10,042 bases of DNA from an uncultured archaeon (GCA_964373695.1 CAYJVT010000029.1:1-10042), one strand, 5' to 3'. Positions 1 through 9,266 are shown, numbered from the stretch's first letter. Numbers and translations: made by a program. The notes: a model not told the origin generated them from the letters alone.

Positions 1-65
1 CCAGAAGAATTCAAGGAATTCTTTTGGGCAAAGGCAGTGGAATCTGCAGATTTGATTATTGTCAT
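1..65 (-). CDS. Possible 5' end of a gene running off the window edge (MTIIKSADSTAFAQKNSLNSS...)
   Basis: ATG at 65-63 overlaps the TGA (64-62) of the upstream gene as ATGA. The frame stays open to position 1. Only 21 codons are visible. Confidence 0.25.
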   Translation of the reverse strand, partial: MTIIKSADSTAFAQKNSLNSS

Positions 66-499
66 ATTATCTCGACCTGTATGCCCGAGGCGCTCCTTGC
101 AAGGCTCACGGACATCCTGCCGGAGCCGCTTGCATTGCCGATTATGTCAATGCTGCTGGAATAATTAACCGTTATCAGGCTGTCGCCGTCATAAGAGAAA
201 TTAAGGTTATTTTGTGTGAAGTTCGACTCGACAAAACGCCCGGGGAACCTGTATTCCAAAGTGTCGGGGCCATCGCGGGCAAAAAGCGTTCCTATCCCTG
301 CATTGAACTGCACAAGCCTTTTCGCTCCCGCCGATTCCGCGCTCAATGAGCGTATCTCGTCATCGAGCTTTTCGAGCGATATACTGCCTTCCTCGAACTG
401 GTTGTAGGCGGGCTCAAGGAGGAAGTTTATTTGAGTCGTCAGAATAATGGTGGAAGCCGTGACAACGGCTATGGCTACCGCAAATGTCAGCATGTTCAT
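62..499 (-). CDS. Hypothetical protein with an N-terminal hydrophobic anchor (exported or pilin-like), 145 aa
   Basis: N-terminal hydrophobic stretch LTFAVAIAVVTASTIIL followed by a Ser/Asn-rich, beta-like region. No recognised catalytic motif. Confidence 0.65.
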   Translation of the reverse strand: MNMLTFAVAIAVVTASTIILTTQINFLLEPAYNQFEEGSISLEKLDDEIRSLSAESAGAKRLVQFNAGIGTLFARDGPDTLEYRFPGRFVESNFTQNNLNFSYDGDSLITVNYSSSIDIIGNASGSGRMSVSLARSASGIQVEII

Positions 500-546
500 G
501 TATTTACTTCCGCCGCGGCGGATAAAATGGTTTTGGATGGAGAAAG

Positions 547-581
547 CGAGCCCGGAGCCGGGCGAATTTGAAATCCATGAA
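547..581. repeat. Dispersed repeat copy A (att-like): CGAGCCCGGAGCCGGGCGAATTTGAAATCCATGAA
   Basis: 548-575 is identical to 3516-3543 (28 bp). 554-581 is identical to 2900-2927 (28 bp). 547-557 is identical to the tRNA 3' end at 4948-4958. Confidence 0.95.
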
Positions 582-594
582 GGGGATTTAGGTT

Positions 595-607
595 TTTATA
601 TCATGTG
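595..607. repeat. Distal block TTTATATCATGTG shared by repeat copies A and C
   Basis: 13-bp identity with 3563-3575. Both blocks start exactly 47 nt after the aligned repeat start (548 and 3516). Confidence 0.85.
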
Positions 608-632
608 ATAGTAAGAAATGAATTACTTTTTC
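604..632. repeat. Second repeat family, copy 1 (abuts the recQ stop codon)
   Basis: TGTGATAG-TAAGAAATGA-ATTACTTTTTC aligns with TGTGATAGGTGAGAAATGATTTTACTTTTTC (2823-2853) at 27 of 31 columns. Confidence 0.8.
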
Positions 633-2799
633 AGATGGTATTTTCTTTGATTAGTTTGAGCCTTACGAGCCTTATTTCCTCATAGGAGTAGCCATCCCCT
701 AGCATCTCTTTGATAGGCGTGAGCGGTCCGCCTCCGAGCTCTTGCATGCATCTGACAACTGCATCCTGCTTCTCCTTGCTTACAAATTGATCGATGTTTA
801 TCTCCTTTCCTGAAAATATCAGCTTCTCTATATGCGATTCTATAGTGCTCGGAGCAAGCCCTCTTTTAGTCGAAATATCCTCAAGACTAAATCCCTGTTC
901 TATCAGCTCAAAAGTCTTCGTATAAGTGTCGGCATCGACATTAATTTTAGCCTGTGATTTTGAAGGAATCTTTCTTTCGTTAAAGTCTTTTTGCAGGCAA
1001 TACCCTCGTATCTTTTCCACGAATCGACTGCCATACTTTTCAAGCTTTGCGCTTCCAACCCCTTTTATCTGCGCCATGCTTTGAAGGTTTTGCGGATAAT
1101 ATATTGACATCTCCCTTAGCGCAGTGTCATGGAATATGACATAAGGAGGCACATGCTCTGCATCAGCAATAGTTTTCCTTAGAATTCTTAGAGCCTCGAA
1201 CAAGTCCTTGTCGAAAGCTTCTTTCGTTGATATTTCTTCTCTTTCCGCGGCAGGCATATCTTCCATGCCAGCAGCTTTTGTAAGCCTCACCGGAAGCTTT
1301 CCCGAAAGGATATCGTAGCTCTTGTCATTTAGCCTGAGAAGAGGATATTTGCTTCCTTCTATGCTAATAAAGCCGAGACGGCAAAGCTCTCTTATGAATG
1401 ACTGCCATTCTCTTTTGCCAATATCTTTTCCGTTCCCGTATGATGCGAGCCTTTCGTGACCATATTGGATTATCCTTTTCTCATTTCCTCCAGTAAGTAT
1501 GGAAATTATGTATGCTCCCCCAAACCTCTCCCGCGTCTCCTTGATGCAGGCAATTATTTTCTTTGCAACTTCCGTGCCATCAAAAGTTTGCATGGGAGTC
1601 AGGCAAGTATCACATTTGCCGCATTGTCCCTCATACGCTTCCCCAAAATAATTAAGAAGCATTTTTCTCCTGCACTCGCGGCTCTCGCAGAAAGCCACCA
1701 TCTTATCCAGCTTCCTGTAAGCTATTGCAAGCTTTTTCCGGTTCCTTGATTTGTCCAGCAGCGCTTCTATTTTTTTCCTGTCGCCATAGCTAAAAAACAG
1801 TATGCACTCGCTTGGAAGCCCATCCCTTCCCGCCCTTCCGGTCTCCTGATAGTATCCTTCGATGTTTTTAGGCAAATCATAGTGGATGACATATCGCACA
1901 TTCGGCTTGTTTATTCCCATTCCAAACGCTATCGTCGCAACTATTATCTGCGCATCATCCCTGATGAACCTCTCCTGGTTTTCAGCCCTTTCATCCTTGC
2001 CGAGGCCGGCATGATAAGGCAGTGCCAAAAATCCGTCTTCCAGCAGTTTTCGCGCAAGTTTCTCAGAGGAACTGCGGCTTTGGCAATATATTATTCCTGA
2101 TTCATTTCTGCGATGTGATACATAATCCACAATCTTATCGTAAGTATCCTCTTTTAGCCGGACATTATAGAATAGATTCGGCCTGTTAAAGCTCGCCCTG
2201 TATATTCGCGGCGAAGAAAGCTTGAGTGTCGAAATGATATCACCTTGCACCTCCGGTACTGCTGTAGCAGTAAGCGCGATTATCGGAACCTTGGGGAATG
2301 CCTCCCTCAACATCTTAAGATTCCTGTATTCCGGCCGGAAGTCATGCCCCCACTCCGATATGCAATGCGCCTCATCTACCGCAAACAGCGATATCCTGAG
2401 CATCCGCAGGAATTCTATGAAATCATAAGATGCAAATCTCTCGGGCGCCACGTACAATATCTTGTCCTTGTTCTCAAGGAGCCTGATCTTTGCATCCTCA
2501 ATTTCACTCATAGTAAGTGTACTGTTGATAAAAGAAGCCCCAATCCCGTTAGCCCGCAGGCTATCCACCTGGTCTTTCATGAGTGAAATAAGAGGCGACA
2601 CTACAATGCTCACCCCTTCCTTCATCACAGCCGGCAGCTGGTAACAAAGCGATTTGCCGCTCCCGGTAGGCATAAGCACAAACACATCTTTCCCGGAAAG
2701 CACGTCCATTACAACATCTTCCTGCATCTCCCTGAATTCATTATAACCAAAATCCAGCTTCAGCCTCTCCAGTGGGTGCTCCATGACTGAAATTTGCAT
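631..2799 (-). CDS. recQ: ATP-dependent DNA helicase RecQ (helicase core, Zn-binding RQC, HRDC, C-terminal HTH). The true start may be ATG at 2784.
   Basis: Motifs MPTGSGKSLCYQLPA, VDEAHCISEWGHDFRPEY, LTATA, YHAGL, VATIAFGMGINKPNVRYVIH and YYQETGRAGRDG. Zn ligands CRRK..CGKCDTC. HRDC segment LRKTIADAEHVPPYVIFHD. An AT-rich TATA-like TATTTAAG lies about 22-29 nt upstream of ATG 2784. Confidence 0.97.
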   Translation of the reverse strand: MQISVMEHPLERLKLDFGYNEFREMQEDVVMDVLSGKDVFVLMPTGSGKSLCYQLPAVMKEGVSIVVSPLISLMKDQVDSLRANGIGASFINSTLTMSEIEDAKIRLLENKDKILYVAPERFASYDFIEFLRMLRISLFAVDEAHCISEWGHDFRPEYRNLKMLREAFPKVPIIALTATAVPEVQGDIISTLKLSSPRIYRASFNRPNLFYNVRLKEDTYDKIVDYVSHRRNESGIIYCQSRSSSEKLARKLLEDGFLALPYHAGLGKDERAENQERFIRDDAQIIVATIAFGMGINKPNVRYVIHYDLPKNIEGYYQETGRAGRDGLPSECILFFSYGDRKKIEALLDKSRNRKKLAIAYRKLDKMVAFCESRECRRKMLLNYFGEAYEGQCGKCDTCLTPMQTFDGTEVAKKIIACIKETRERFGGAYIISILTGGNEKRIIQYGHERLASYGNGKDIGKREWQSFIRELCRLGFISIEGSKYPLLRLNDKSYDILSGKLPVRLTKAAGMEDMPAAEREEISTKEAFDKDLFEALRILRKTIADAEHVPPYVIFHDTALREMSIYYPQNLQSMAQIKGVGSAKLEKYGSRFVEKIRGYCLQKDFNERKIPSKSQAKINVDADTYTKTFELIEQGFSLEDISTKRGLAPSTIESHIEKLIFSGKEINIDQFVSKEKQDAVVRCMQELGGGPLTPIKEMLGDGYSYEEIRLVRLKLIKENTI

Positions 2800-2822
2800 G
2801 GAATTCTTAAATATGAAGAAGT

Positions 2823-2853
2823 TGTGATAGGTGAGAAATGATTTTACTTTTTC
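2823..2853. repeat. Second repeat family, copy 2 (upstream of recQ)
   Basis: 27 of 31 columns match 604-632. The two copies bracket recQ in direct orientation. Confidence 0.8.
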
Positions 2854-2896
2854 TTAGTGCTTCTTGGAATTTATTAAGAATAAGAAATATAGGAAA

Positions 2897-2927
2897 CCAG
2901 GAGCCGGGCGAATTTGAAATCCATGAA
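2897..2927. repeat. Dispersed repeat copy B (tRNA-like core degenerate)
   Basis: 2900-2927 is identical to 554-581. The core at 2893-2903 reads GAAACCAGGAG, a 7/11 match to CGAGCCCGGAG. Confidence 0.93.
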
Positions 2928-2934
2928 TATTGTT

Positions 2935-2950
2935 GAGAAGTTTTATTAAA
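2935..2950 (+). promoter_or_regulatory. Putative archaeal BRE/TATA promoter of relE
   Basis: Purine-rich GAGAAG followed by TTTTATTAAA (2941-2950), 21-30 nt upstream of ATG 2971. Confidence 0.55.
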
Positions 2951-2970
2951 TCGTATATGAATAAAGAAAT

Positions 2971-3291
2971 ATGCCAGATTATGCAATCTATCATTCCTCA
3001 AGATTCGATAAAGAACTTGAGAAATTCGGAAACGATTTCAAAGTCTGGCTGGATAAAATGGAAGAGCAGCTTGTCAAAAGTCCCTATTCTGGAGACCCGC
3101 TTGGCGTCAAGTGGTTCCGCGAAAAGAAATATAAGAATTATAGGGTTTATTTTCTCGTCTATGATGACATTTCGTCTGTTTTTATGGTAGGAATAAGCGA
3201 CAAGAAAGACCAGCAAAAGGTTATCAATACAATAAGACTTTTGTTGGACTTTTTCAGGGATGAACTTGAAAGATTAGCCAAGAAAGAGTAA
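2971..3291 (+). CDS. RelE/ParE-superfamily toxin (probable ribosome-dependent mRNase), 106 aa
   Basis: Size and pattern fit a RelE fold: N-terminal YHSSRFDKELEKF, then GDPLG..FREKK..YRVYFLVY..VFMVGISDKKDQQKVI. Confidence 0.8.
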   Translation: MPDYAIYHSSRFDKELEKFGNDFKVWLDKMEEQLVKSPYSGDPLGVKWFREKKYKNYRVYFLVYDDISSVFMVGISDKKDQQKVINTIRLLLDFFRDELERLAKKE

Positions 3292-3432
3292 TTACTTTAC
3301 CCTTCTTATTCTGCCTTCTTTTATGTCTTTAAGGCTTTCCATAAACTGCCTGAGCAGCTCGACATCTATTTCTGCCTGCATCTTCAGTTTTTCATATTCC
3401 TTCCTTGGTATAGTAACTGTGTCCGTTTTCAT
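3292..3432 (-). CDS. Putative RelB-like antitoxin, 46 aa, not in the ORF track: MKTDTVTIPRKEYEKLKMQAEIDVELLRQFMESLKDIKEGRIRRVK
   Basis: Hand-translated from ATG 3432 to TAA 3294-3292. It has a TVTIPxxEY N-terminus, a charged helical body and a C-terminal SLKDIKEGR like small archaeal antitoxins. A good TATA box sits upstream and the gene abuts relE. Confidence 0.75.
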   Translation of the reverse strand: MKTDTVTIPRKEYEKLKMQAEIDVELLRQFMESLKDIKEGRIRRVK

Positions 3433-3454
3433 GAATAATTTAACCCCACAGCCA

Positions 3455-3462
3455 TATTTAAA
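3455..3462 (-). promoter_or_regulatory. TATA box TTTAAATA of the putative antitoxin gene
   Basis: Matches the archaeal consensus TTTAWATA and lies 23-30 nt upstream of ATG 3432. Confidence 0.7.
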
Positions 3463-3515
3463 GGGATACAGATATTGCAGGGGAATTCTGATTTCAAATC
3501 CGAATCTCCTGAAGT

Positions 3516-3575
3516 GAGCCCGGAGCCGGGCGAATTTGAAATCTGGGTAGGGATTCGGGAAATTTATATCATGTG
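3516..3575. repeat. Dispersed repeat copy C (att-like) including its distal block
   Basis: 3516-3543 is identical to 548-575 and 3563-3575 is identical to 595-607. An inverted arm GATTTCAAATCCG lies at 3490-3502. Confidence 0.95.
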
Positions 3576-3587
3576 TTATATGGGAAT

Positions 3588-4045
3588 TTATGATTTATCA
3601 TCTGTCTTTTGTTCATTCACTTTCTTCATGAGTTCAGGATAAATCCTTTTCAGGAAATTCACGGCTTCTTTTGCATATTCCTTGTCAAAGGTCTTTCCGT
3701 AATACAAAATGCCGTTCCTGAAATATCTGAGCTGATCGGCGAAATGGACATCATTCTTATCAAATCCAAGAATTCTCATGTAAGACACTTCGGCTTCATG
3801 TGCATAGGCACCCGAGGCATTATAGCCATCAAGGAGCATTCTTGCCCTTATCGCTTCCATTATGGCATCGTAGCAGTCCTTGATTATTGAATTTTTGTTG
3901 TTTTCGTCTATACCTATTTTTTAATTACGTCATTAATCCATCTGACAGACCTTTCGGATTCTTCTATCAGGAATCTTGCCCTTGACATGTCCGGACTCTG
4001 TTTTTTCACGATTCTCATTTTCAGGAATTCGCTGAATGACTTCAC
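3588..4045 (-). pseudogene. HEPN-domain protein (MNT partner) split by a one-base frameshift in an A6 run (3917-3922)
   Basis: GTG 4045 overlaps the MNT stop (GTGA) and reads MKSFSEFLKMRIVKKQSPDMSRARFLIEESERSVRWINDVIKK-TAG(3916-3914). The -1 frame continues IGIDENNKNSIIKDCYDAIMEAIRARML...HEAEV...LRYFRNGILYYG. One extra A would give a 152-aa protein. Confidence 0.8.
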
Positions 4046-4590
4046 AATTCTATCCCTCCGACAAGAATGATGCCGTTGTAGAGACTTTCTCTCAGATGTT
4101 TGTGTATATTGCTGAATGAGTCGTAAAAATTGATATTTATCTCCCTTTCAAGAGCCTTTTCGAATTTATCCAAGTCTATAACTTTGTCCTTCCTGCCTAT
4201 TACAGCCAGATCGATGTCAGAACTTATTATGTCTTCCCCTCTCGAATAGCTGCCGAACAGGATTATTGTTGCTCCTGCAAATTCATGCTCAATGTAGTCA
4301 AAAAGTCCGGATTCATATATAAGCTTCAGGTTATCAGCCCTTTTCAGCTGCATTACTCTTCGGCTATCCCTGTTCATTTCTATAGACCATCTTTTAGATT
4401 CGTTGTCCTGCTGGACAACAATCAGCCCGTCTTCTTCCATCTGTGGAATAGCTTTCATCACTGCCGGAGGGGAAACTCCGAGAACTTTTGCTATCTGCCT
4501 CTGGTTCATGGTCTTTCCGGCCCTTACGAAAAGAAGCCTCAATATCTCCTGCTGGAGATTTGTAAACTTTAGTTTATATATATTTATCAT
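4042..4590 (-). CDS. Winged-HTH plus minimal nucleotidyltransferase (MNT) antitoxin, 182 aa
   Basis: N-terminal HTH MNQRQIAKVLGVSPPAVMKAIPQMEEDGLI. Pol-beta-type motif ILFGSYSRGED..SSDIDLAVIG. Translationally coupled to the HEPN gene. Confidence 0.92.
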   Translation of the reverse strand: MINIYKLKFTNLQQEILRLLFVRAGKTMNQRQIAKVLGVSPPAVMKAIPQMEEDGLIVVQQDNESKRWSIEMNRDSRRVMQLKRADNLKLIYESGLFDYIEHEFAGATIILFGSYSRGEDIISSDIDLAVIGRKDKVIDLDKFEKALEREININFYDSFSNIHKHLRESLYNGIILVGGIEL

Positions 4591-4609
4591 AGTTAATACA
4601 TATTAACTA
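4590..4609. promoter_or_regulatory. Palindromic operator candidate TAGTTAATA-CA-TATTAACTA
   Basis: Perfect 9-bp inverted arms with a 2-nt spacer, lying between the TATA box (4613-4620) and the MNT start codon. Confidence 0.75.
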
Positions 4610-4612
4610 AAC

Positions 4613-4620
4613 TTTATATA
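4613..4620 (-). promoter_or_regulatory. TATA box TATATAAA of the MNT-HEPN operon
   Basis: Located 23-30 nt upstream of ATG 4590. Confidence 0.7.
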
Positions 4621-4856
4621 TCTATCATACTGTGTCGGGGAAAGTATTTTCTGTAGAAGCAGCCGTCGCACATCCCGTCGTGCCAGTCCCTGTTATGCGC
4701 CGAAATCTTTGCCTTGCACTCCCTGCAGTCGTAGTCCATTTCCTCGTCATTCTTCATGTGGAACGTGCGCATCTTTTTCTTCATCTCGGCATCGCTCATC
4801 GGCTGGGCAAAGCTGCCTTCTGACCAGAAATCGTCTTCTTCCTTTTCTTCGGACAT
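4614..4856 (-). CDS. Small putative zinc-finger protein, 80 aa (MSEEKEEDDFW...CRECKAKISAHNRDWHDGMCDGCF...)
   Basis: Two CxxC pairs (CREC, CDGC) and an acidic N-terminus. The longer track ORF (to 5093) runs through the tRNA, so ATG 4856 is preferred. Confidence 0.6.
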   Translation of the reverse strand: MSEEKEEDDFWSEGSFAQPMSDAEMKKKMRTFHMKNDEEMDYDCRECKAKISAHNRDWHDGMCDGCFYRKYFPRHSMIDI

Positions 4857-4920
4857 TATTATATATTTCTTCGCATGTTTACATTCTTTTCTGTCACGAT
4901 TTTGGAGGCGTGTCCGTTTT

Positions 4921-4937
4921 AATCCCCCAGCAGGATT
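4921..4937 (-). terminator. Weak hairpin downstream of the tRNA (AATCC-TGCTGGG-GGATT on the minus strand)
   Basis: 5-bp stem with a 7-nt loop, about 10 nt after the discriminator base. Function is uncertain. Confidence 0.25.
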
Positions 4938-4947
4938 TGAAATATCA

Positions 4948-5107
4948 CGAGCCCGGAGGGATTCGAACCCCCGACCTTCTGGTCCGAAGCCAGACGCTCT
5001 ATCCAGATTTCTCGGCAATCCCTTAAATTTGTGAAAGCCTTCCGTTCTTTGGGACATGCAAAGACCTTTCTTTCCAAGAAAGGGATTTGCCACTAAGCTA
5101 CGGGCCC
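4948..5107 (-). tRNA. tRNA-Arg(TCG) with an 85-nt D-loop intron (exon 1 5107-5093, exon 2 5007-4948); CCA not encoded
   Basis: Spliced sequence GGGCCCGTAGCTTAG|TCTGGATAGAGCGTCTGGCTTCGGACCAGAAGGTCGGGGGTTCGAATCCCTCCGGGCTCG folds into a cloverleaf. Acceptor GGGCCCG/CGGGCTC, D-stem GCTT/GAGC, anticodon stem TCTGG/CCAGA with loop CTTCGGA, T-arm GGGGG-TTCGAAT-CCCTC, discriminator G73. Confidence 0.93.
5008..5092 (-). other. Non-canonical tRNA intron at position 15/16 with a relaxed BHB motif
   Basis: Central helix GCUU/GAGA (3 pairs plus a G-A mismatch), bulges AG|U and AA|U, intron closing stem GGCAA(A)UCCC/GGGAUUGCC. The boundary could shift by 1 nt without changing the mature tRNA. Confidence 0.8.
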
Positions 5108-5148
5108 TTTAGTAAACTAATCGCTGCAGAGAATTAAAATAGAAATAA

Positions 5149-5598
5149 TCAGGGATTGCAGGCGCCTTCACTGCACCCGTTCGGGCACTTCTTCAGGGCA
5201 CTGGCCATCCCGCTTCCGTCGCAGTAATATTCCTTCAGTATGGTGCCGGAGCACGAGTCCTCAAACACGTAGGATGTGCCGCCGCTTGTCGCGGTGAGGG
5301 TTCCCCTAAGCCCGGCATTATTGCCGTCCGAGTCGGAGCACAAGTCTTGGACTGCGGCTTCCTTCTGTGCAACAGACTGCGCAACCGCGCCTTCACGGTT
5401 CGTCGCGAAGCCTGTGTATATTGGCGTCGCCAGAATGCCTATTATCAGCAGCAGCGCCGCCGCATAGGTCTTCTGATTGTGCCACATCGTCTGATTCCGG
5501 AAGCGGGGCGCATATTTCGCCGTCTTATTGCGGTTTTTCCTGAATGATAATGAGAGCCTAGCCATTTTCTTCATAGAAATCATTTTGTTTCGGAACAT
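5149..5598 (-). CDS. Membrane-anchored or exported Cys-rich protein with a C-DSDG...C...EYYC...CPNGC..GAC domain (start uncertain)
   Basis: Basic N-terminus, transmembrane-like YAAALLLIIGILATPIY, and a C-terminal six-Cys module of the kind I recall from DPANN surface proteins. Confidence 0.7.
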   Translation of the reverse strand: MFRNKMISMKKMARLSLSFRKNRNKTAKYAPRFRNQTMWHNQKTYAAALLLIIGILATPIYTGFATNREGAVAQSVAQKEAAVQDLCSDSDGNNAGLRGTLTATSGGTSYVFEDSCSGTILKEYYCDGSGMASALKKCPNGCSEGACNP

Positions 5599-5607
5599 AT
5601 AAATATA

Positions 5608-7020
5608 TTACTTGAGCATCTGTTCGAGGAGCTTCCTTATCGTGACCGGGTCGCCCCTGCCCTGAGTCTTGCGCATCACCTGGCCGACGAGGAAGTTGAA
5701 CGACTCCTTTCTCCCGGACTTGTAATCGAGCAGCGCCTTCGAGTTCTCGTTAAGAACGTCCTTTATGACGTCCTCGAGCTTCTCCTCGTCGTGTATTATG
5801 GAGACGTCGCTCTTCTTCATCATTTCCTCAGGATCCTCGGGCCTCTTCACCATATCCCTGAACAGGAGCTCGGCCGTGCGTTCCGTTATCCGCCTGTCGT
5901 ACATGAGCTGGAGCATCCTCGTGATGTGAAATTCCTTTATCCCCGTGTCCTTCAGTCTGATGTTGCTGAAGTTGAGCGTCTTTTTTATTTCGCCGGCGAA
6001 CCATCTCGCCGCAAAGTCCGCGTCAATCGTCTTTATGACCTTCTCGAACATCTCGGCGAGGTCCGGCTCAGAAGCTATGGAGACTGCAAGCTCCTCCTGT
6101 ATGCCCATCGACGCGTACTTCCTGACCTTGTCGCGGGCGAATTCCGGCATCGTCTCCTTTATAGTTCTTAGCATCCCGGCATCCACGCGTATCTTCGGTA
6201 TGTCGCCCTCGAAAATATAGCCGTAGTCCTCCTCCACTTCCTTTGCCCTGAGACTTCTTGTGACGCCGGCACCGGCATCCCACGACCTCGTCTCCTGCAC
6301 TATCTCCTTCTTCCTCGAATACAAAGTGCGCTGCCTGACTACTTCGTATTCCAAGGCCTTCTCGATGTCCTTGAATCCGGATATGTTCTTTATCTCGACG
6401 CGCTCGGAGCGCTTGAGTCCCGGTATGTCCTTCTGGTCCAGGGAAATGTTCGCATCTACTCTCATCGAACCCTCCATGTCAGGATTGAACGCATTCAGGT
6501 ATTGGAGCATCGTGGAAAGCTCCTGCAGGAAAAGCCTGGTCTGCTTCGGAGTTGTGAAATCCGGCTCCGTCACTATTTCGCACAAAGGCACGCCTGAGCG
6601 GTTGTAATCAACAAGCGCATAGCTTGCTGTTGTGATGCCGCCGCCTTCGTGAACTATCCTTGCCGGATCCTCCTCCAGGTTTATCCTCTTTATCCTTATC
6701 TCTTTTCCTGCGGCAGCAAGCTTTCCGTCTGTTGCTAGAGGCATCTCGTACTGCGTGACCTGGAAATTCTTCCCCATGTCAGGGTAGAAATATGATTTCC
6801 TTGAGAAGAATGTCTCCTTGGGCATCCTGCATCCGAGTGCCGTCGCTATCCTCAGAGCCATTTCCACGGCTTGCCTGTTGACGCGCGGCTTGCTTCCGGG
6901 CAGGCCTATGCAGTATGCGCACACGCGCGTGTTCGGCTCGCTGCTGAAGCCGTTCTCGCATCCGCAGAAGAGCTTTGTTTTCGTACTCAACTGACAGTGC
7001 ACTTCAAGACCGATTTTCAT
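5608..7020 (-). CDS. gatB: Asp-tRNA(Asn)/Glu-tRNA(Gln) amidotransferase subunit B
   Basis: Motifs IGLEVHCQL, YFYPD, RINLEED, DYNRSGVPLCEIVTEPD, GSMRVDANIS, EIKNISGF and C-terminal FLVGQVMRKTQGRGDP. Confidence 0.97.
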   Translation of the reverse strand: MKIGLEVHCQLSTKTKLFCGCENGFSSEPNTRVCAYCIGLPGSKPRVNRQAVEMALRIATALGCRMPKETFFSRKSYFYPDMGKNFQVTQYEMPLATDGKLAAAGKEIRIKRINLEEDPARIVHEGGGITTASYALVDYNRSGVPLCEIVTEPDFTTPKQTRLFLQELSTMLQYLNAFNPDMEGSMRVDANISLDQKDIPGLKRSERVEIKNISGFKDIEKALEYEVVRQRTLYSRKKEIVQETRSWDAGAGVTRSLRAKEVEEDYGYIFEGDIPKIRVDAGMLRTIKETMPEFARDKVRKYASMGIQEELAVSIASEPDLAEMFEKVIKTIDADFAARWFAGEIKKTLNFSNIRLKDTGIKEFHITRMLQLMYDRRITERTAELLFRDMVKRPEDPEEMMKKSDVSIIHDEEKLEDVIKDVLNENSKALLDYKSGRKESFNFLVGQVMRKTQGRGDPVTIRKLLEQMLK

Positions 7021-8951: not shown

Positions 8952-9229
8952 ACGACCCTCGGCCCCTTGAAGAACCCCTTTTCCTTATGCTTAGTATTGG
9001 AAAGCGCCGCGTCCCTGCTTATACATTCCTCCTTCTCGTCCTCGCGGAGGGATGCTTCCATGGGGACTGGCTGGAAGGAAGGCTCCGACTCGGACGGCAT
9101 CGAGTTCAATATTTCAAAAGCCTTCAGTATTTCCTCCAAGTCCGCCTGCAGCTTTTTCGATTCGGCTGCCGTTATGCGGAGCCTTGCGAGGGAAGCGACG
9201 TGCTTTATCGTGTCTGGAGTGATCTTCAT
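8948..9229 (-). CDS. gatC: Amidotransferase subunit C, about 93 aa (start placed at MKITPDT; the track start is 9292)
   Basis: IKHVASLARL N-terminus, LREDE, ALSNTKHKEKGFFKGPRVV C-terminus. Overlaps the gatA start by ATGA. Confidence 0.9.
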   Translation of the reverse strand: MKITPDTIKHVASLARLRITAAESKKLQADLEEILKAFEILNSMPSESEPSFQPVPMEASLREDEKEECISRDAALSNTKHKEKGFFKGPRVV

Positions 9230-9266
9230 AGGTATAGTATTAAGTGCAATGTTAAAAAACAAAAAT

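Follow-up and report, generated by a model that had tools for sequence, protein, structure and literature searches.

The window analysed here is the whole of contig C29 (10,042 bp) of an archaeal metagenome-assembled genome (MAG) of 1.02 Mb, 91% complete, whose family belongs to the Aenigmatarchaeota (DPANN). An island of three small gene modules lies in it between the 3' end of a tRNA-Arg(TCG) gene and a chromosomal flanking gene, and a repeated site that opens with a copy of the end of the tRNA stands at the tRNA-distal boundary of each module. Read outward from the tRNA, the array holds a zinc-ribbon gene, a helix-turn-helix minimal nucleotidyltransferase (HTH-MNT) gene and a broken HEPN-like gene (module 1), a putative antitoxin gene and a relE-like gene (module 2), and recQ (module 3), after which the flank begins. 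The modules occupy 3526-4947 (1.42 kb), 2904-3514 (0.62 kb) and 558-2892 (2.35 kb), respectively. Gene strands are mixed, relE being on the + strand and the others on the - strand, and TATA-like words, which were read by eye and are putative promoters, precede each gene. A composition profile puts GC content at 34-48% in the island and at 50-60% in the gatCAB genes next to it. No island open reading frame (ORF) has a recombinase domain in Pfam, and PF00589 has no match in the window. The locus looks like a small, undescribed gene-capture hotspot; its features are listed in Table 1.

Table 1. Features of the tRNA-Arg(TCG) island and its surroundings in the window
Feature	Position	Strand	Description
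Chromosomal flank past site A	62-499	-	145-aa protein with hydrophobic N-terminus; 83% orthologue adjoins the tRNA in G001
Site A, distal array end	544-601	+	Core 547-557, CCGGGC, palindrome GAATTTGAAATCC, AGGGGAT; model R1 45.6 bits
Insertion relative to same-genus G001	558-4947	.	4.4 kb, flanked by 11-nt direct repeat of the tRNA end
Module 3, RecQ helicase	631-2799	-	Complete: DEAD, Helicase_C, RecQ_Zn_bind, RQC, HRDC and HTH_40, all above Pfam cut-offs
Site B	2891-2947	+	Degenerate core 2893-2903, arm identical over 22 nt, then relE promoter region; R1 34 bits
Module 2, toxin	2971-3291	+	RelE/ParE-like, 106 aa
Module 2, antitoxin	3292-3432	-	Putative, 46 aa, convergent with relE; homologues adjoin RelE in G257 (70% aa)
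Module 2, tRNA-proximal end	3490-3514	+	Palindrome GATTTCAAATC, CGAATCTCCT, GAAGT, abutting core C
Site C	3512-3569	+	Core 3515-3525; R1 44.9 bits
Module 1, gene 3	3588-4045	-	HEPN-like MNT partner, in two frames, split near 3920-3941 (within 3916-3941), beside an A/T run
Module 1, gene 2	4042-4590	-	Winged helix (MarR-like) plus minimal nucleotidyltransferase (MNT); Pfam NTP_transf_2 1.3e-8, MarR 3e-8
Module 1, gene 1	4614-4856	-	80-aa CxxC...CxxC zinc-ribbon protein
Module 1, tRNA-proximal end	4933-4947	+	Palindrome GGATTTGAAAT, 4 nt from the tRNA end
tRNA-Arg(TCG) gene	4948-5110	-	D-loop intron of ~85 nt at about 5008-5092; last 11 nt (4948-4958 on +) are the core
Chromosomal flank, tRNA 5' side	5149-7020	-	149-aa protein and GatB; gatCAB cluster runs on to 9232

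The three sites have a 22-nt word in common, GGAGCCGGGCGAATTTGAAATC, that is present exactly at 554-575, 2900-2921 and 3522-3543, always on the + strand, and a match to this word arose in none of 200 dinucleotide-preserving shuffles. A repeat search of the window returned one family of three copies (544-610, 2890-2956 and 3512-3578), in which copy C is 79-82% identical to copy A over 67-68 nt and copy B is 64% identical to it over 67 nt. Each copy of the word is joined on its left to a copy of the terminal 10-11 nt of tRNA-Arg; the core, CGAGCCCGGAG, is matched at 11 of 11 positions at site A and in the tRNA gene itself, at 10 of 11 in site C and at 7 of 11 in site B. With three mismatches allowed, the site was not found in the 1.02-Mb genome beyond the three copies at this locus.

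The tRNA-Arg gene is intact beside the insert. The Rfam tRNA model scores 29.1 bits on 4948-5022, and ARAGORN, which misses the native gene because of its ~85-nt D-loop intron, reports tRNA-Arg(tcg) when the intron is deleted in silico. An orthologous tRNA-Arg is present in G001, a genome of the same genus, on whose contig C16 the orthologues of 62-499 (83% amino acid identity) and 5149-5598 (80%) lie ~200 bp apart with tRNA-Arg alone between them. The left flank of the island aligns with G001 up to ~535, where 12 nt in our genome and 20 nt in G001 diverge before the core follows in both; this alignment and the continuation of the core indicate that 558-4947 is additional sequence next to the tRNA 3' end. 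A second empty state is that of G028, of genus g18, where the interval holds three small C2H2 ORFs only and is without the site. The first-pass annotation of the window had described a tRNA-anchored array of three modules divided by tRNA-end repeats that are fused to a shared arm, and its coordinates and repeat counts (11/11, 10/11 and 7/11), its tRNA-Arg(TCG) anchor and its module sizes all proved correct. We note that intron position differs between the two species of this genus, the intron being in the D-loop here and in the anticodon loop (~30 nt) in G001 (L043, 1991-2095), and that the intron segment 5045-5089 is 82-86% identical to loci on contigs C36 and C2. We also note that small C2H2 zinc-finger ORFs of genus g18 reach the tRNA-Arg 3' end, with a stop codon that overlaps or abuts the core (L145, G028:C1 9440-10110; L128, 10600-10745); the equivalent tRNA-adjacent position in the window is taken by a different zinc-ribbon gene.

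The site was sought with a degenerate pattern and then with sequence models (A1 and R1) built from eight copies, in 44 genomes of the family and 137 genomes from other families of the class. Its carriers are few, about 6-7 genomes including this one; it was found in five more genomes (G257, G035, G263, G033 and G024), which belong to two other genera of the family. Matches among the 44 family genomes are exclusively in tRNA-Arg-linked arrays, the carrier genomes have no other match at E < 1e-4, and none was found in the 137 genomes of other families. A single copy of the site stands 460 nt from tRNA-Arg in G257, and G035 has a pair of copies whose distances from the tRNA are 583 and 1,304 nt; there are also two in G263, one of which is on a neighbouring contig, one full copy in G033, and one on a separate contig in G024. 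The gatCAB-tRNA-Arg neighbourhood is retained in genus g18, and the array occupies the interval there that runs from gatB, or from a gene next to it, to the tRNA 3' end.

The cargo differs in each genome. In G035 it is a GNAT gene and then a DUF2283 pair, in G263 a methyltransferase and a GT2 gene and then a DUF2283 pair in common with G035, and in G033 an LD-carboxypeptidase, a NUDIX gene and others. The cargo of G257 is a gene for a 136-aa protein and, past the core copy, a lipoprotein gene, recQ (65% amino acid identity to that of the window) and an antitoxin gene with relE (70-74%); recQ adjoins the same tRNA region there, and the order of recQ and relE/antitoxin is the reverse of that in the window. 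The module 2 layout of arm, RelE and antitoxin recurs in G024:C53. Pairwise comparisons place the breakpoints of this turnover. Between G035 and G263 an identity of 91.5% extends over the distal cassette that both have, on through the core and across ~36 nt of arm, at which point the identity stops, to resume at the tRNA; between arm and tRNA lie 0.54 kb in the former and 2.3 kb in the latter, which are unrelated. The flanks of G035 and G033 are 80-99% identical (99% in the tRNA region), and nothing between gatB and the tRNA is common to the two. No recombinase genes were found by Pfam among all array ORFs of the present genome (G000), G035, G263, G033 and G257. Other checks that bear on the first-pass annotation came out in its favour as well, namely that the repeat is not scattered (three copies here, none elsewhere in the genome, and tRNA-Arg-linked matches only across the family), that empty loci exist (G001 and G028), that content and order vary at one type of site with breakpoints at the repeats, and that no recombinase domain is recognised by Pfam in the island or in the related arrays. 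Exact 19-27-nt words of the site also match GTDB genomes and JGI metagenomes; nearly all of these matches are bacterial coding sequence for EPGxxEFEI, for example at the C-terminus of glycoside hydrolase 3, and they were set aside as coincidence. The site words have no match in viral contigs (IMG/VR).

Comparison of the copies gives a general layout of ~50 nt, made up of the core GAGCCCGGAG (consensus GAGCCYGGAG on the + strand), 6 variable nt, the palindrome GAATTTSAARTTC (GAATTT-S-AARTTC, with either C or G as its central base), 3-4 nt, and AGGRGAT, which is present in seven of the eight aligned copies and in the G024 site. The 6 variable nt of G033 are GGATTC, the same as in the tRNA, and the identity between tRNA and site therefore reaches 19 nt in that genome. 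The dyad GCCCGG-AG-CCGGGC and a TATA word at +47 belong to this genome only and are outside the conserved site. The palindrome recurs in inverted orientation at the tRNA-proximal end of modules 1 and 2 and of the first G263 module. Weak inverted matches to the arm model are found at the proximal end of module 2 and, in module 1, at 4917-4943, and the proximal flank of module 2 matches that of the first G263 cassette at ~21 of 24 nt, including ATCTCCT, the complement of AGGAGAT. Five of the genome's 23 ATTTSAAAT words fall within the island. In G035 core position 6 is T in the tRNA and C in both site copies, and the G024 site opens with GGGCC, the 5 nt that end the tRNA of that genome, and is divergent thereafter. 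Such one-sided mismatches suggest that the crossover would take place in the terminal ~5 nt of the tRNA gene, the remainder of the core then being homology borne by the element. It was considered that the G024 site might be aimed at another tRNA; this was rejected, as its first 5 nt are the end of G024's own tRNA-Arg, making it a hybrid core. We also considered that a split gene might begin at the site, in the manner of SSV-type integrases, given that reading frames are open from the core into the zinc-ribbon and antitoxin genes; this idea was dropped because the arm has indels between genera, no coding signal and no similarity to integrases.

Two of the three modules are toxin-antitoxin-type sets. 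The zinc-ribbon protein of module 1 has no family above threshold in profile searches. Homologues of the HTH-MNT protein that follows it are patchily distributed in 120 of 251 genomes of the phylum (best identity 66%). The palindrome TAGTTAATA-N2-TATTAACTA lies at about 4594-4614, between a TATA word and the HTH-MNT start, and is conserved in front of a homologue that is 48% identical and belongs to another family (L084, G096:C7); given this conservation, it probably serves as operator of an autoregulated pair. The pairing of MNT with its partner is kept in 14 of 19 loci. The first-pass annotation had named an MNT/HEPN module, and Pfam agrees on the MNT domain; the partner is frameshifted, and HEPN-like solely by an atlas lead (0.93), with no Pfam match. 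When an intact homologue is used as tblastn query it matches the partner gene in frames -1 and -3, and the region of the Rx4-6H motif reads RYFRNGILYY, without the His. The split is also present in a Logan contig that is 100% identical to the window and may go back to the same data. The half of this pair that is presumed to be the toxin may be dead. The RelE-like toxin of module 2 is below threshold in ParE_toxin (E 0.019, 16 bits, cut-off 23) and TIGR02683 (E 0.036, 14 bits), and its atlas neighbours are RelE/ParE clusters (0.97); it has homologues in G257 (74%) and G024 (37%). PDB sequence searches with this toxin and with the HEPN partner gave no match. RecQ is patchy in distribution, being present in seven of 23 sampled genomes of the family vs one of 227 others in the phylum (loci L119-L125). 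We note that recQ is interrupted by stops in G017 and G032 and is split at an assembly gap (a run of X) in G035.

Outside the island, the GatB orthologue of G001 is 90% identical in amino acid sequence. Positions 1-55 of the contig (CCAGAAGAATTCAAGGAATTC...) are a dispersed repeat with at least 12 copies in the genome at 83-100% identity, on C3, C5, C10, C12, C20, C40, C43 and other contigs, several of them internal and several at contig ends; this repeat is probably why the assembly breaks at the start of C29. Contig C50 opens with the last 55 nt of C29 (9988-10042) in identical form; this looks like a k-mer overlap, so C29 probably runs on into C50. An 18-nt perfect inverted repeat, at 5322-5339 and 9082-9099 (3.7 kb apart), lies within the gene for the 149-aa protein and gatC, where it encodes the peptides SDSDG and PSESE; it is not expected by chance in 10 kb, and the gatC copy is kept in G001.

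We favour the reading that small cassettes have been inserted repeatedly and site-specifically at the tRNA 3' end by a recombinase supplied in trans, and would put its probability at a little over one half (about 0.55). The 3' end of tRNA-Arg(TCG) would be a fixed docking site into which modules of 0.5-3 kb were inserted successively by site-specific recombination, each with a conserved attP-type arm at its tRNA-distal end and some with an inverted palindrome at the proximal end as well. An insertion next to the tRNA would keep the tRNA whole and shift older modules outward, each of them closed by its own site; the comparison of G035 with G263 suggests that new cassettes enter at the tRNA-proximal position. 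Archaeal precedents exist for tandem integration and for integrated elements that have no integrase (PMC8371274). The recombinase would be encoded outside the array, by another element, a virus or the host, and we infer circular intermediates, the type of enzyme and the place of the crossover. A further step, about which we are doubtful, would be to credit this family with machinery dedicated to cassette capture, integron-like in its working and built of other parts (entry at a tRNA 3' end, double-stranded sites of ~50 bp, and a recombinase elsewhere, perhaps not a classical integrase), and that shuffles defence, toxin-antitoxin and repair genes in 1-Mb genomes.

Several observations weigh against repeated insertion in trans, one being that the site could be linked to no recombinase. 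This genome's sole element-type tyrosine integrase (C21:1-1013) has a C-terminal zinc ribbon and is missing its catalytic-Tyr region. Its family is present in 20 of the 44 family genomes, including an intact 409-aa homologue in G263 (C63), and was not found in the assemblies of G035, G033, G257 and G024; it does not co-occur with the arrays. The surroundings (~2 kb) of 16 integrase loci in the family, on what are short contigs of incomplete MAGs, gave no site-like sequence. An excised circle, a solo cassette or a free element with the site was found in none of the viral, metagenome and genome collections, and by exact-protein look-ups two other assemblies of this population have an array identical to the present one. 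The core of site B is degenerate, tRNA-proximal module ends are poorly conserved, and RecQ and RelE of G257 lie outside the stretch bounded by core copies. In addition, every genome compared is a MAG, 79-93% complete. As to other enzymes in the present genome, no serine recombinase was found, one CRISPR-type Cas1 (C13) and one IS200/IS605 TnpA (C52) are encoded without linkage to the array, and a 144-aa tyrosine-integrase fragment (C5:37083-37923) lies ~200 nt downstream of an intron-bearing tRNA.

That last fragment and the degraded integrase on C21 are what might be expected if the modules were decayed remnants of larger plasmids or proviruses that had integrated in tandem in the tRNA and lost their integrase and most of their genes, with addiction modules protecting what remains. 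For archaea, both tandem integration and elements that lose their integrase once integrated are on record (PMC8371274), the toxin-antitoxin character of two modules of the three fits such protection, and the MNT cassette of G096 (below) is flanked by a ~35-nt tRNA repeat. Nevertheless we consider this origin unlikely, because integrase fragments are found in none of about ten modules in six genomes, and genes in these compact modules end 45-75 nt from the site. Moreover, one arm of ~50 nt closes unrelated cargo in three genera, which random deletion would seldom have kept, and the difference between G035 and G263 is a clean swap of one module.

Two other explanations do without a site-specific recombinase of this kind. 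The cores could be target-site duplications and the palindromes terminal inverted repeats, both made by a transposase-like or casposase-like staggered cut at the tRNA 3' end; the palindrome is indeed inverted at both ends in modules 1 and 2 and in the first G263 module, casposons insert at tRNA 3' ends, in tandem arrays with shared duplications, and the genome encodes the Cas1 and TnpA mentioned above. Yet the palindromes stand at unequal offsets from the module ends (6 vs 4-13 nt) and the terminal bases mismatch, several modules lack the proximal palindrome altogether, the cores of G035 and G024 are inexact relative to the resident tRNA end with mismatches on one side only, and no module holds a Cas1, polymerase or transposase, all of which makes transposition very unlikely. 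Least probable, in our judgement, is that the repeat is mainly regulatory or structural (an outward promoter with leader, a terminator or an insulator), and that cargo changes when DNA is taken up and homologous recombination follows between the flanks that are conserved (gatB and the tRNA). Sites A and C do have a TATA-like word ~47 nt away from their core, and minus-strand transcription driven by this word would cross the site into the next gene; the flanks are well conserved within g18, with a 99% identical tRNA region in G035 and G033. But this TATA word is not kept in the other genera, unlike the core, palindrome and AGGRGAT, a regulatory element has no need of a copy of the tRNA's last 10 nt, the element is nowhere else in 44 genomes, and breakpoints lie at the internal sites and not at the flanks alone.

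Small units at tRNA ends are also seen elsewhere. A genome-wide search for duplications of tRNA 3' ends gave convincing cases at tRNA-Ser, tRNA-Gly (a 58-nt insert) and tRNA-Arg only; matches of 10-12 nt on C2, C3 and C9 lie inside housekeeping genes and were discarded as chance. The tRNA-Ser case is a 543-bp unit of ribbon-helix-helix (RHH) and RelE genes at the 3' end, bounded by a 20-nt repeat and without an integrase, and it suggests that small tRNA-end cassettes may be a wider habit of this lineage. It differs from the present locus in that it stands alone, has another repeat and is without the shared arm, where tRNA-Arg has a multi-unit array with a cross-genus site. We note that in another family, G096:C7 (L084, 7133-9225) has an integrase-less 2.07-kb unit of an AAA-type ATPase and HTH-MNT, on either side of which stands a direct repeat of ~35 nt that covers the T-arm, acceptor end and trailer of a tRNA. 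In G016:C7 (L130, minus strand, near oriented position 9235) a 14-nt repeat of a tRNA 3' end lies 79 nt downstream and encloses a tiny insert, which resembles the tRNA-Gly case of our genome (C2:7805 +68).

The DPANN archaea have tiny, host-dependent genomes, and how they gain or swap accessory genes is poorly known. Here, a locus is hypervariable with base-exact boundaries, its site is conserved in three genera, and its cargo is of the defence and addiction type with no mobility gene attached. If the cassettes do move as units, they would be a second, independently built answer to the problem that integrons solve, and the site model would be a sequence handle on mobile cargo in DPANN metagenomes. 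If they are immobile, the locus is still a clear example of tRNA-linked islands decaying to minimal units, with a patchy RecQ in one of them.

Among known systems, casposons are elements of 8-20 kb that encode Cas1 and PolB, have true terminal inverted repeats and make exact 14-15-bp duplications; they target tRNA 3' ends and can form tandem arrays that share duplications. The present arrays are like them in their tRNA 3'-end target and in that neighbouring units share repeated target copies, and unlike them in that no Cas1 or PolB, true terminal inverted repeat or exact duplication is seen. Closer in arrangement is tandem accretion, which the passages of PMC5357655 that cite Pavlovic 2004 and Bellanger 2011 describe for ICESt1-type elements of Streptococcus, where integrative and integrase-less elements accumulate at one att site; tandems of a phage and an integrative and conjugative element (ICE) at one att site are also on record (PMC13651849). 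As in those systems, a single conserved gene has several units lined up at its 3' end with att copies between them, and the recombinase-less units of ICESt1-type systems are thought to be moved by the enzyme of a related element. The known units are however 5-50 kb in size and at least one member of a tandem has an integrase, whereas those described here are 0.5-3 kb and none of about ten has one; nor was a donor element with the same att found near the 16 integrase loci.

Archaeal tRNA-integrated elements, for which 'gene capture' and tandem integration are described where PMC8371274 cites She et al. 2001 and Krupovic et al. 2010/2019, and whose integration leaves tRNA fragments (PMC9897764), resemble the present modules in their tRNA 3' target, the bounding direct repeat of the tRNA end, low GC and a missing integrase. 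The known ones are plasmid- or virus-sized with repeats of 40-50 nt and usually split or residual int genes; the modules of this study differ in an identity of 10-11 nt (19 in G033), a conserved arm that is not tRNA, and turnover on the scale of a cassette. Integrons, and clusters of attC sites lacking an integrase (CALINs), have been reported in Archaea including Aenigmatarchaeota, with cassettes rich in toxin-antitoxin and acetyltransferase genes (PMC9668308). The arrays share with them small cassettes that each end in a conserved site, toxin-antitoxin and acetyltransferase cargo, an integrase that is often off the array and, as seen between G035 and G263, a variable cassette adjoining a fixed platform. 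That platform is a tRNA gene, and there is no IntI and no attI; genes lie in both orientations with their own putative promoters. Single-stranded folds of eight sites gave z of -2.1 to +2.4 relative to shuffles, with no common hairpin, and no GTTRRRY/RYYYAAC pair was seen on reading the site sequences. The sites do not fold like attC, so the locus is not an integron, as the first-pass annotation had foreseen in setting it apart from attC integrons; its description of the architecture as integron-like stands as a functional analogy and does not extend to membership of the integron family. The closest mechanisms are tandem accretion and the tandem or integrase-less elements of archaea, and the closest functional analogy is with integrons and CALINs. 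What is new is the size of the units (0.5-3 kb), the lack of a mobility gene in about ten of them, and a double-stranded site that is tied to one tRNA across genera.

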